A stretch of DNA of 64,000 bases from Escherichia coli 042 (lineage in GTDB: Bacteria > Pseudomonadota > Gammaproteobacteria > Enterobacterales > Enterobacteriaceae). A program made the position numbers and the translations under genes. The DNA lies in the NCBI RefSeq assembly GCF_000027125.1, contig NC_017626.1; one strand, 5' to 3'. The notes beneath the pieces are model-generated. The model made no database searches. It was not told the origin of the DNA and worked only from the letters and a program-made list of their open reading frames with translations. The first letter of the stretch is position 1; each line of letters begins with the position of its first letter. This document shows, in pieces, positions 11,108 through 26,337 of this stretch.

Positions 11108-12316
11108 TCAGGCTGTCGCCTGAATCATTTCGGTGGGTTCCTGCTTCAACGAGCGGCCTGACTGCACCATCTCTCCACAGGCAAGAACGGCGTGCCCCGC
11201 CGCTAAAATGTTACGAGCGCCATTTACATCGGCGTTCGCTGTATATCCACATACCTGGCATCTGAATTGACTTTGTGACAGGCGATTTTCTTTCGCAGTA
11301 TGACCACAGCACGCGCAACGCTGGCTTGTGTACGCTGGCGGAACAGCAAGCAACTGACCGCCACTCCAGAGCTGCTTGTACTCAAGCTGGCGGCGCATTT
11401 CATACCAGCCCTGATCCAGTATCGAACGGTTTAAACCTGATTTTGCCCGGACATTGCGCCCCGGCTGGCTGAGCGTACCCGCTGCTGACTTTGACATGTT
11501 GCTGACCTTCAAATCCTCAATGACTATCATTGCGTGGTTTTTGCTGACGGTCGTTGTGACTTTGTGAAGGTAGTCCCTGCGGATATTTGCGATACGGGAA
11601 TGCAGTCGCTGTATTTTGCGTTTCTGCTTCTGCCAGTTGTTGCTGAATTTGACCCTGCGGCTTAACTGTCGCTGAAGTCTCGCCAGCTTCTTCTGGTTTT
11701 TCTGAAAACTGTTTACAGGCTCAAAGACTGTGCCATCTGACAGCGTGGCGAGTTTAGCCACGCCAGCATCCAGCCCGACCATTGATGCTGAAGGGTGAAC
11801 CGGAGTTGATACTTCACTTTCTGTCTGAATACTGATGTACCACTTACCGCAGGACTGGCTGACAGTGACATTTTTTACAACACCCGTGACCTGACGGCTG
11901 TTCCGGTAGCGCATCCAGCCCAGTTTCGGCAGAAAAATACGGCTGTTTTCCTGATCGAGCTTAACGCCCTGCGGATAGCGGAATGCATCATTCTGTCCCC
12001 GCTTTTTGAATCGGGGAAAAGCAGCCCGATTCTGGAAGAAGTTTTTGTAAGCCCGCTCAAGGTCTTTCAGTGACTGTTGCAATGGCTGTGAGGGCGAATC
12101 TTTAAGCCATTGCGTTTCAGTGGCGTTTTTCCACTCAACCAGCCAGGAAGCCATTTTCCCGTAAGGGATGTATTTATTACCGGCCTCATGATTCTCATTC
12201 TGAAGCGCCAGAGCGCGATTGAAAACGAAACGACATGCGCCTGCGAAGCGCCTCATTTCACACTCCTGTTGACCACCTGGTCTTAACTGGAATTTAAATG
12301 CCTGTAATCGTTTCAC
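11108..12316 (-). CDS. tnpB: TnpB (OrfB) RuvC-like RNA-guided nuclease of the IS200/IS605 family
   Basis: 402 aa with RuvC-I GLDAGV, RuvC-II IVIEDL, Ruv[12 protein letters not shown] and a zinc finger CACCGH...CQVCG. Confidence 0.9.
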
Positions 12317-12323
12317 AGGTCAA

Positions 12324-12929
12324 ATGATACTTTGGTCTATGAAAAAAGAAACCGATATCCGGCGTGGAAGGCATTGTGTTTTCCTGATGCATGTTCACCT
12401 GGTCTTTGTCACCAAATACCGACGCCAGATTTTTGACCATGACGCGACAGAAAAACTACGCACTTACTTTTCAAATGTATGTGCTGATTTTGAAGCTGAA
12501 CTGGTTGAAATGGATGGCGAACCAGATCACGTCCATTTGTTAATTAACTATCCTCCCAAACTGGCGATATCCAGTCTGGTAAACAGCCTCAAAGGCGTAT
12601 CGGGTAGGTTACTGCGACGAGATCGACCAGATATTGCAGTCAGGTATTACTACAAAGGCGTTTTGTGGAGTCCTGGCTATTTTGCCAGTAGCTGCGGAGG
12701 TGCGCCAATATCCGTCATCCGCCAATACATTGAACAACAGCAAACACCTGGTCAGGTGGAAAACCGCGCCTTATATCCCCGCCCTGAAGGACGGGGTTTT
12801 ACAGCGCACTGGATAAAGTCATGGACTCAACAACCTCAATCCAGCCATGCTCACTGGCGATGTCCTGGCCGTTTAACCAACGGCGCAGCATATTCAGTGC
12901 CATCATTGCGCACACTTCCTGACGGATAG
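12324..12929 (+). CDS. tnpA: IS200-type Y1 (HUH) transposase TnpA; annotated ORF is abnormally long at the 3' end
   Basis: HUH motif HVHLL and the C-terminal WSPGYFASSCGGAPISVIRQYIEQ motif. The ORF reads past the terminal hairpin into the yfaY-antisense flank (201 aa against a typical 140-155 aa). Confidence 0.75.
   Translation: MILWSMKKETDIRRGRHCVFLMHVHLVFVTKYRRQIFDHDATEKLRTYFSNVCADFEAELVEMDGEPDHVHLLINYPPKLAISSLVNSLKGVSGRLLRRDRPDIAVRYYYKGVLWSPGYFASSCGGAPISVIRQYIEQQQTPGQVENRALYPRPEGRGFTAHWIKSWTQQPQSSHAHWRCPGRLTNGAAYSVPSLRTLPDG
12777..12796 (+). repeat. IS terminal imperfect palindrome (tnpA-proximal end)
   Basis: CCCCG-CCCTGAAGGA-CGGGG, sharing the GCCCTGAAG loop with the hairpin at 11073-11094. 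Confidence 0.55.
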
Positions 12930-21282: not shown

Positions 21283-22934
21283 TGAAATCGGTACGTTACC
21301 TTATCGGCCTCTTCGCGTTTATTGCCTGCTATTACCTGTTACCGATCAGCACGCGTCTGCTATGGCAACCCGATGAAACGCGTTATGCGGAAATCAGTCG
21401 AGAAATGCTGGCATCCGGCGACTGGATTGTGCCCCATTTGTTAGGGTTACGTTATTTCGAAAAACCCATTGCCGGATACTGGATTAACAGCATTGGGCAA
21501 TGGCTATTTGGCGCGAATAACTTTGGTGTGCGGGCAGGCGTTATCTTTGCGACCCTGTTAACTGCCGCGCTGGTGACCTGGTTTACTCTGCGCTTATGGC
21601 GCGATAAACGTCTGGCATTACTCGCCGCAGTGATTTACCTCTCATTGTTCATTGTCTATGCCATCGGCACTTATGCCGTGCTCGATCCGTTTATTGCCTT
21701 CTGGCTGGTGGCGGGAATGTGCAGCTTCTGGCTGGCAATGCAGGCACAGACGTGGAAAGGCAAAAGCGCAGGATTTTTACTGCTGGGAATCACCTGCGGC
21801 ATGGGGGTGATGACCAAAGGTTTTCTCGCCCTTGCCGTGCCGGTATTAAGCGTGCTGCCATGGGTGGCGATGCAAAAACGCTGGAAAGATCTCTTTATTT
21901 ACGGCTGGCTGGCGGTCATCAGTTGCGTACTGACGGTTCTCCCCTGGGGACTGGCGATAGCGCAGCGGGAGCCTGACTTCTGGCACTATTTTTTCTGGGT
22001 TGAGCATATTCAACGCTTTGCACTGGATGATGCCCAACATAGAGCTCCGTTCTGGTACTACTTGCCGGTCATCATTGCCGGTAGCCTGCCGTGGCTGGGA
22101 TTACTCCCCGGAGCACTGTACGCAGGCTGGAAAAACCGCAAGCATTCCGCAACCGTCTATTTGTTGAGCTGGACGATAATGCCGCTGCTGTTTTTCTCCG
22201 TCGCTAAAGGCAAATTGCCCACCTATATTCTTTCCTGCTTTGCACCTCTGGCAATGCTGATGGCGCATTACGCTTTGCTGGCAGCAAAAAATAATCCTCT
22301 GGCGTTGCGGATTAATGGCTGGATTAACATCGCTTTTGGCGTCACTGGCATTATTGCTACGTTTGTGGTCTCCCCCTGGGGACCTATGAGCACGCCGGTG
22401 TGGCAAACCTTCGAGAGCTATAAAGTCTTCTGTGCATGGTCGATTTTTTCGCTATGGGCATTTTTCGGCTGGTACACCTTAACAAACGTCGAAAAGACCT
22501 GGTATTTTGCCGCACTTTGCCCGCTGGGGCTGGCGTTGCTGGTAGGATTTTCAATTCCTGACAGAGTCATGGAAGGAAAACATCCGCAATTTTTTGTCGA
22601 GATGACACAAGAATCACTGCAGCCAAGCCGCTATATTCTTACTGACAGCGTGGGCGTTGCCGCAGGTCTGGCATGGAGCCTGCAACGCGATGACATCATC
22701 ATGTATCGTCAGACAGGTGAGTTGAAATACGGCCTTAATTATCCGGATGCGAAAGGGAAATTTGTCAGCGGTGATGAGTTTGCAAACTGGCTTAATCAAC
22801 ATCGTCAGGAGGGGATTATTACACTCGTGCTTTCGGTTGACCGCGATGAAGATATCAACAGTCTCGCCATTCCGCCCGCAGATGCCATCGATCGTCAGGA
22901 GCGTCTGGTGCTGATTCAGTATCGGCCCAAATGA
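21282..22934 (+). CDS. arnT: undecaprenyl-phosphate-alpha-L-Ara4N transferase
   Basis: 550-aa polytopic membrane protein recognised as ArnT. Confidence 0.93.
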
Positions 22935-24021: not shown

Positions 24022-25377
24022 TTATTGCTGGCGTTGCACCCACTCTTTTAGCGCCTGACGTGAAATTTTAATACCGCCGTTTTTCAGCTCCGGCGGCAGA
24101 GTTAGCCAGCGCACCGGTTGTTGAAAACGAGCCAGCTTATCTTTCACCCATTCGTCAAGATCAACGGTTTGCTGGTCATACTCCACCACCGCTACCGGCC
24201 GATGACCAAACTCCTTGTCGGCAACGGGAACGATAAACACCTGCAAAACTGCAGGATGTGCAGCAATAACACGCTCGACTTCTTCCGGCTGAATACCCTC
24301 ACCGCCACTGAAGAACAGATTATCTAAACGTCCGACAATGGTCAGCTTGCCATTATGCATCTCACCGCGATCGCGCGTGGCGTACCAGCCTTCGTCATTA
24401 ATCAGTGGAACCAGTTGCCCGTTACGCCAGTAACCTTCTGCCATACTGGCAGCCCGCAGCCACACTTCATCATTAACGATTTTCACTTCCCGCCCCGGCA
24501 GCGGCGAACCGACGTCCGCCAGGCCGTCGGCTTCTTTCGCACACACCGTGGAGGCAAACTCGGTCAGACCATAGCCGCAAAAGCAACGAATCCCCTGCTC
24601 GCGCGCCTGTTCCGTCAACTCGACCGGGATAGCCGCACCGCCAAGTAACACCGCTTTCAGGGAAACGGAACTGCGGTTAACCAGCAAACGCCAGAGTTGT
24701 GTTGGCACCAGTGAAGCGTGAGTACAGCCTGCCAGCATTTGCTCCAATGGCTGTTTATCACGTACCGTCATCCGCGCGCCAGCGTATAACCAGCGCCACA
24801 TAATTCCCTGGCCGGAGACGTGAAACAGCGGTAAAGAGAGCAACCAGTCATCGTGCTCGCCAAACGGTATCAGCGATAACACACCTTGCGCACTGGCAAG
24901 ATGGGCCTGATAAGTATGAACAGCGGCTTTCGGCAAACCGGTAGAGCCGGAGGTCAACGTCATTGAGCACAGACGCGTCGGCTGCCACGCAGCGGCATGT
25001 GCGCCTTCAACCAGCTGAATGTGCAGCGACGTTAACGCCGGAAACGTGTTTTCCCCATCCGGCACCAGCGCAAATTGCAGCGTCAGATTGGGGAGCAATT
25101 CCTCAAGTAACGGTTGCGGCAGCTGTGGATTCACGGGCAGCACCCGCGCCCCGCATTGCAGTAACGCCAGCCAGGCCAGCAGCGTTTGCGGCGAATTCCA
25201 CGCCCGCAACATCACGCCGCTGCCCTCAACAACGCCCTGCGCCGCAAAGCCGGAGGCTAATTCATCGACGCGAGCACAAAGCTCGCGCCAGTTAAGTTGC
25301 TCGTCATTAAGACGTAAGGCGATGGCTTCTCCCCGCACTTGCCGCCAGTGACGCCACGGCCAGTCAGAGAAGATCAT
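24022..25377 (-). CDS. menE: o-succinylbenzoate-CoA ligase
   Basis: 451-aa adenylate-forming enzyme recognised as MenE. Confidence 0.93.
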
Positions 25378-26337
25378 AACAGCCGCTCCAGTGCATCAAC
25401 TTCCACTAACGGTAGCGGGCTACCCGGCCAGCGACGAACCTGCTGCGCCTGCATCAGATCCAGCGTGTCCAGCCCCGGAATGGTGTCTGGCGTTAACCAG
25501 GCGGCAATCCGCGCCAGTTGCGTTAAGCCTAAGCTCGACTCAATAGAAGAACTGATCACCGCCGTCAGCCCCAACGCGTGCGCTGCCTGTACCTGCTCGC
25601 GTACTTTTTCCAGACTGCCCGTGAGCGTGGGTTTGATAACTACCGCGCGCACGCCCTCTTCAGCCACAAAGGCAAAATCCGGCTCGCGCAGGCTTTCATC
25701 CCAGGCAATGGCAATGCCGGTTTCACGGGCAAACGCACGCGAATCATCGCGGGTTTTGCACGGTTCTTCGAGAAACGCGATGCGGTGGCGATAATCCGGG
25801 TTAACGTATTTGGCAAACTGCTGGCCTTTCAGCGGTGTCCAGGCGCGATTCGCGTCAAGACGCAAATGCAGATCCGGAATTGCCTCCAGCAACAGATTAA
25901 CCACCATGCCGTCGCGCACCGCTTCGTACAATCCCACTTTGACCTTCGCCACTTTCTCGCCTGGCATATCGGCAAGTTTCAGGATCAGATCGTCAGGATC
26001 GCCATTACACAGTGGTGCCGCACGGTAATTGGCCGCCCGCGGGAGCGTGTCTGCCAGCTCCGCCAATGCACAGCTTATGCCAAAGGCGACGGAAGGCATT
26101 TGCGGTAATTCGCAATCGCCTGCCAGCCAGTTATTTACCCAGGCAAGCAGCACACTTTGCGCCTCTTCCCAGGTTTCCTGACTAAAGCCCGGCAGTGGGG
26201 AGATCTCCCCCCCACCCTTCACGCTCGCCCTCACGCAGGCAAACGTACAGCCCGTCGCGGGTTTTTAACCGCCTGTCGCGCAGAACCACCCCCGCGTCCA
26301 TGGGGATCTGCCAGCGGTATACCTGCGCGCTACGCAT
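25374..26337 (-). pseudogene. menC: o-succinylbenzoate synthase, reading frame interrupted by a +1 frameshift (964 nt instead of 963)
   Basis: ATG at 26337-26335 overlaps the menB stop (TAATG). After codon 43 the frame shifts at a C7 run (26207-26213, G7 on the coding strand) and reaches a TAG at 26184-26182. The rest of MenC continues in another frame to 25374. Confidence 0.8.

Follow-up and report, generated by a model that had tools for sequence, protein, structure and literature searches.

Strain-private frameshifts in short mononucleotide runs, in which a one-base change inactivates an otherwise intact gene, are a familiar class of bacterial pseudogene; rph-1 and ilvG in E. coli K-12 and many genes of Shigella and Salmonella Typhi are examples. 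Homopolymer-length errors in deposited genomes take the same outward form, i.e. a single-base miscount of a run that is unique to one record. Slippery runs at which a one-base shift restores the productive frame also occur in programmed recoding systems, e.g. the +1 frameshifting of prfB and the programmed transcriptional slippage of IS elements, Thermus dnaX and Shigella mxiE. Efficient transcriptional slippage is known chiefly from A/T runs of at least 9, contingency tracts typically comprise 8 or more bases, and bypass of indels in homopolymer runs is possible at about a percent level. In E. coli, a menC null mutant has neither menaquinone nor demethylmenaquinone and does not respire fumarate, DMSO or TMAO, yet grows normally in air. 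The feature described here, a broken menC in the genome record of E. coli 042, is of a well-known and ordinary kind: a strain-private frameshift or an uncorrected base-calling error, with no designed recoding signal.

Within the 64,000-nt stretch of strain 042 DNA that was analysed (contig NC_017626.1; the window), menC, the gene for the menaquinone (vitamin K2) synthesis enzyme o-succinylbenzoate synthase (OSBS), occupies 25374..26337 on the minus strand and is broken by a single extra base. The initial annotation had described a gene of 964 nt, not a multiple of three, whose ATG overlaps the menB stop, whose first frame is lost in a run of seven Cs and whose remainder lies in another frame, and translation bore out each of these statements. 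The ATG at 26337 shares the last base of the menB stop. The 5' frame (26182..26337, minus strand) comprises 43 native codons followed by 8 out-of-frame codons and a TAG at 26184-26182; it reads ...EREGWG, then GDLPTAGL and stop, 51 codons in all. Across the run the coding strand is GAA GGG TGG GGG GGA GAT CTC CCC ACT GCC GGG CTT TAG, and the G7 homopolymer (26207..26213, minus strand; C7 on the plus strand) marks the site of a +1 insertion relative to a universal G6. The downstream portion (25374..26206, minus strand; EISPLPGF...ERLL and stop) is uninterrupted in the next frame up to the normal stop at 25374-25376. Candidate internal starts of this 3' frame are the GTG codons at 26234, 26222 and 26153, and no Shine-Dalgarno sequence is obvious on inspection 5' of any of the three. 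From the OSBS structure papers, the 3' frame presumably contains all of the catalytic residues. The C7 at 26207-26213 is the sole G/C homopolymer of at least 7 bases found by regular expression in the 64-kb window, the remaining 22 homopolymers of this length being A/T without exception. A GC-rich 14-bp perfect palindrome, GGGGAGATCTCCCC, read from the sequence at 26197..26210, takes in part of the G run; the hairpin predicted for it does not exceed shuffled controls in stability (z = -0.75).

Removal of one G yields a 320-aa product which, as had been predicted, is an o-succinylbenzoate synthase; the same protein is already present in the public protein collection as the E. coli enzyme. The repaired product is homologous over its full length to the characterised E. 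coli OSBS, aligning with 1FHU_A over residues 1-320 (E = 4e-212) and with 1FHV and 1R6W over the same 1-320; in relatives, the same protein has precomputed Pfam assignments to MenC_N and MR_MLE_C. As written, menC differs from this enzyme in that its frame is broken after codon 44. Owing to the shift in the G7 run the capping and barrel domains do not share a single uninterrupted frame, and no one ORF covers both the barrel and the N-terminal portion of the capping domain. By megablast the 964-nt menC query is 99.9% identical to the menC annotated in 20 RefSeq complete genomes, where the gene has 963 nt, and with one G taken away its DNA is identical to the intact gene in all 20; a direct alignment with Ecol_316, one of the 20, has one gap column in the run as its sole difference. 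Because the change is a single column in an otherwise identical gene, the difference is, on these alignments, no chance feature. The gene is carried by 5,419 of 5,426 complete E. coli genomes and is thus a core gene.

The surroundings of menC are those of the canonical menFDHBCE cluster. The ORF map and an annotated relative place menC in the men operon between menB and menE, and the overlaps of its start with the menB stop and of its stop with the menE start are preserved. On the minus strand, menE (24022..25377), whose start overlaps the menC stop in ATGA, encodes a 451-aa product, and menB (26337..27194) a 285-aa product, both exact matches in the collection; menH (27209-27967) and menD (27964-29634) match CBG35339.1 and CBG35340.1 exactly. 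The DNA of menF (29723-31018, minus strand) is identical to that of the draft relatives L003 and L068, in which a 431-aa gene is called. The earlier statement that all other men genes are intact therefore holds, for MenB, MenE, MenH and MenD from exact matches to full-length proteins and for menF from the identity of its DNA to that of relatives. LrhA of the window is likewise an exact match, to CBG35362.1. Between menD and lrhA the window has 21 genes, which makes lrhA the 22nd after menD; the two accession numbers differ by the same amount, so the window runs collinear with that record. Within menH, a compensating -1/+1 indel pair lies 5 nt apart at 27556-27561 relative to the Ecol_316 allele and recodes two MenH codons; the allele is common to the 042 lineage, the exact protein being found on 98 contigs.

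Six Gs had been expected in orthologues, and when the comparison was run G6 proved effectively universal. Two probes were searched by megablast against 5,426 complete E. coli genomes. The 39-nt G7 probe, which seeds only where all seven Gs are present, matched 0 of the 5,426, whereas the 38-nt G6 control matched 5,180; the low-complexity filter is therefore not the cause of the empty G7 result. This RefSeq set is without a genome of the 042 lineage, its best identity over 24 kb being 98.9%, and the identity bands of an 81-nt probe are too coarse to tell G6 from G7 plus one SNP. A metagenome scan with a pattern allowing either length returned G6 in 40 of 40 contigs and G7 in none, and a regular expression applied across the fetched loci gave the same picture (50/50 G6, 0 G7).

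The products that G7 would generate were also sought. By exact look-up in a collection of 15 billion proteins the 51-aa N-terminal piece was not found, and exact look-ups of the C-terminal products of 286, 282, 241 and 230 aa returned none on record; the collection spans 153 billion gene positions and includes assemblies of public sequencing runs. A 259-aa C-terminal ORF is on record, but solely on contigs that are G6 or otherwise disrupted. Five such contigs were read, and the four shown (L006-L009) are cut at a contig end or otherwise disrupted, with G7 absent from all four. On these comparisons the extra G is private to this one genome record.

Three draft assemblies of the 042 lineage carry G6 in DNA that is otherwise free of substitutions relative to the window. 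These are L068 (GCA_050688495.1), with 0 substitutions over 21,171 nt (window 23087-44257), L069 (GCA_049245695.1), with 0 over 13,247 nt, and L003 (GCA_036599305.1), with 0 over 8,760 nt. A one-base gap at the 26207-26213 run is present in the alignments to L001, L003-L005, L013, L068 and L069. Apart from this base, menC and no less than 21 kb of surrounding sequence match relatives with an intact gene base for base, so the extra base, if really present, is extremely recent. An old, decaying pseudogene was considered and rejected: menC has a single lesion only, and the relatives with 0 substitutions over 8.8-21.2 kb are G6. As a separate observation, the window shows a mosaic boundary between 26213 and 27104. 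Only 6 substitutions distinguish positions 1-26000 from the Ecol_316 group, but the divergence is 1-3% from about 27.1 kb onward, a step which places a recombination breakpoint in or just after menC and menB.

The quality of the record itself was assessed against two draft relatives, L068 (window 23087-44257) and L071 (window 43586-64000). Over the approximately 41.6 kb compared, a stretch rich in A/T runs of 7-8 bases, no further private homopolymer indels and one substitution were found. This agreement at the other homopolymers indicates that the record is not generally error-prone at such runs. The A7 at 60508-60514 sets the window apart from Ecol_316, a more distant genome, yet recurs in L071. 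The only substitutions relative to close relatives are at 22514 (arnT, A vs G) and 55911 (alaA, G vs A). The arnT change is synonymous, since the relatives carrying G encode an identical ArnT protein, and the alaA change is probably silent too, the AlaA allele of the window being a common one; either change could be private to this record.

A different picture is given by the two complete NCTC PacBio genomes of the 042 lineage, LR134238 and LR134246 (L004, L005, L013, L072 and L073). Compared with the window they have numerous one-base indels, for the most part in short mononucleotide runs, by which menE, arnA, arnB, nuoG, nuoA, ackA and alaA are split and menB and nuoB are called at altered lengths. 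Assembly error is the probable cause, and may be the reason for the absence of both genomes from the RefSeq set searched. Because both are full of single-base indels, their G6 call counts for little.

Strain 042 was sequenced to 8x depth by capillary Sanger chemistry (dye terminator, ABI3700) from two insert libraries and was finished, with 110 chromosomal pseudogenes reported (PMC2808357). In the genome paper and the supplementary files, menC receives no comment beyond its entry among the conserved genes of Table S2, neither menaquinone nor anaerobic respiration is treated, and the paper contains no statement on re-checking of pseudogene mutations (PMC2808357). A literature search on menC or menaquinone in enteroaggregative E. 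coli, EC042 and FN554766 returned nothing relevant. In the protein collection, MenC from the 042 record is absent, as an intact protein or as a fragment, while neighbouring CBG proteins are present, which suggests that the depositors treated menC as a pseudogene without translation. The CBG3xxxx series is taken here to represent the chromosome of the enteroaggregative E. coli O44:H18 strain 042 (FN554766).

The proposal of a pseudogene or a homopolymer sequencing error, put forward as an either/or in the initial annotation, is supported, and the two halves of it are rated about equal. The reading preferred here, for which the chances are close to even without quite reaching that mark, is that G7 is a real one-base expansion and a strain-private null allele of menC. 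Slipped-strand mispairing at the homopolymer would have extended the G6 tract to G7, a classic product of that process. The frame would then shift after Gly44 and the protein would be truncated at 51 residues, with the first 43 native codons cut off from the rest. If the extra base is present in the DNA of the cell, menC would be null, the pathway would be blocked at o-succinylbenzoate synthase, and the strain would be without menaquinone and demethylmenaquinone; ubiquinone-dependent aerobic growth would be kept and anaerobic respiration on fumarate, DMSO and TMAO lost. The anatomy of the frameshift, its uniqueness and its recency are direct results of the comparisons. We infer the presence of the base in the organism, and with it this phenotype, from several lines. 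The extra G is the only difference from the intact menC of the 20 RefSeq genomes and of L003, L068 and L069. The otherwise clean record, the finished state of the genome and the apparent calling of menC as a pseudogene by its depositors also suggest a real mutation, and a precedent, by analogy, may be seen in the menC disruptions of two sequencing-run assemblies, L008 (a one-base deletion) and L007 (IS186). What weighs against it, as far as the sequences searched can tell, is that no second independent sequence carries G7 (0/5,426 genomes, 0/40 contigs, 0/50 loci) and that no G7-specific gene product appears on record among the 153 billion gene positions. The sole indel in approximately 41.6 kb is moreover a homopolymer indel, as a base-calling error would look. 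The 042 event also departs from known strain-private pseudogenes in being seen in one sequence only and in affecting a core respiratory gene that is kept intact in the lineage, without accompanying decay.

The same uniqueness is the main strength of the competing explanation, that the capillary-Sanger sequence miscounts the run through a consensus or base-calling error and that the organism has G6 and a functional 320-aa MenC, which we regard as a serious contender at somewhat under an even chance. Miscounting a homopolymer by one base is the most frequent type of sequencing error, the run is the only G/C run of at least 7 bases in 64 kb and overlaps a GC-rich perfect palindrome, and G7 is found in this record alone, with G6 elsewhere even in relatives with zero substitutions over 8.8-21.2 kb. 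No G7-derived gene product has been recorded from any independent assembly, and menC is otherwise free of signs of decay. The paper is silent on re-checking of pseudogene mutations. Points against an error are the 8x coverage from two insert libraries, followed by finishing (PMC2808357), and the usual practice of annotators to inspect a frameshift in a conserved gene. Strain 042 is reported to have given volunteers diarrhoea (PMC2808357), so that a natural null of core menC in it would be somewhat unexpected. Whereas homopolymer errors are many in LR134238 and LR134246, the 042 record is without other such discrepancies over approximately 41.6 kb and matches its draft relatives at every other homopolymer compared. 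A Sanger compression artefact at the palindrome is not relied on; the stability of the predicted hairpin is unremarkable (z = -0.75), so that such an artefact is not specifically supported. The indirect evidence on the question of an artefact is thus mixed, because the uniqueness of G7 points to one and the otherwise clean record points away. Far less probable is that G7 is real but leaky, RNA polymerase dropping one G, or a tRNA-Gly slipping by +1 on GGG-GGG-G before GGA, in a minor share of transcripts or ribosomes that would yield sufficient MenC for a low demand for quinone. The run is perfectly slippery, so that the tRNA can re-pair after a +1 move, and the premature stop only 8 codons downstream leaves a short window for frame correction. 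Set against this, G7 occurs in no other genome and there is no conserved or selected recoding site, inspection found neither an upstream Shine-Dalgarno-like stimulator nor an A-site stop codon, unlike prfB, and seven G/C bases are short for efficient transcriptional slippage. That all seven Gs are genuine while strain 042 nevertheless produces sufficient MenC, a core respiratory pathway being sustained by error-prone decoding of a fresh frameshift, is given a very small chance. A designed mechanism of frameshifting or transcriptional slippage, as the slippery run had been thought possibly to permit, finds no support, G7 being shared by no other genome. As a programmed recoding site the run was rejected, both because the out-of-frame arrangement is not conserved (G7 in 0 of 5,426 genomes vs G6 in 5,180; 40/40 contigs and 50/50 loci G6) and because inspection found no A-site stop and no Shine-Dalgarno-like sequence at prfB-type spacing, and G7 is not an A/T run of at least 9. 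The likeness to prfB and to the slippage systems goes no further than the run itself, for the 042 menC site is conserved in no orthologue, has no visible stimulatory elements and is no long A/T tract. Least credible, to the point of being close to negligible, is that menaquinone synthesis is switched on and off by phase variation of the G tract as a contingency locus, a reading whose sole support is a G homopolymer within a coding region. The tract falls short of the usual size of contingency tracts and its length is invariant (G6 in 5,180/5,426 genomes with G7 in 0, and G6 in 40/40 contigs and 50/50 loci); a contingency locus was rejected since no length polymorphism was found in any dataset searched.

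Other disruptions of menC can be garnered from the contigs that carry the 259-aa ORF. Contig L007 (SRR33956737) starts, over its positions 1-40, with the IS186 terminal inverted repeat (CTTAAGTTAGCGCTTATG) abutting GGGAGATCTCCCC, at approximately window 26209; the IS186 repeat (CATAAGCGCTAACTTAAG) was confirmed at both ends of K-12 IS186A. IS186 is thus inserted in the menC of another E. coli exactly at the G-run palindrome. IS186 prefers GC-rich sites, and the repeat abutting GGGAGATCTCCCC in L007 identifies the GC-rich palindrome as an IS186 target. In contig L008 (SRR10568411) the run is G6 and an apparent one-base deletion lies in a CCC equivalent to window 26170, the gene caller splitting menC into 66-aa and 259-aa pieces. 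Of the other two, L006 is a metagenome scaffold that is apparently misjoined and L009 is truncated at the contig end. The disruptions in L007 and L008 indicate that menC knock-outs occur sporadically.

The value of the finding is mainly practical, E. coli 042 being the enteroaggregative prototype and in common use as a reference genome. Should the base be an error, menC needs correcting in the reference and in the metabolic models built on it. Should it be real, the stock behind the reference is a mutant deficient in menaquinone, and any work with it on anaerobic respiration or gut colonisation would be biased. A new mechanism emerges in neither case.

The NuoL and NuoG alleles of the window are too common to mark the 042 lineage. 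ElaD (window 33088-34257) has 389 aa, vs 402-416 aa in other lineages, and this 389-aa allele is confined to about 82 blocks of the collection index, essentially the 042 lineage. Between yfaV and yfaY, at window 11108-12929, lies an IS200/IS605-type element (402-aa tnpB plus tnpA). At this position other strains (L011) carry rhamnonate genes, an MR_MLE dehydratase and an IclR regulator, and the Ecol_316 group has the IS200/IS605-type arrangement.
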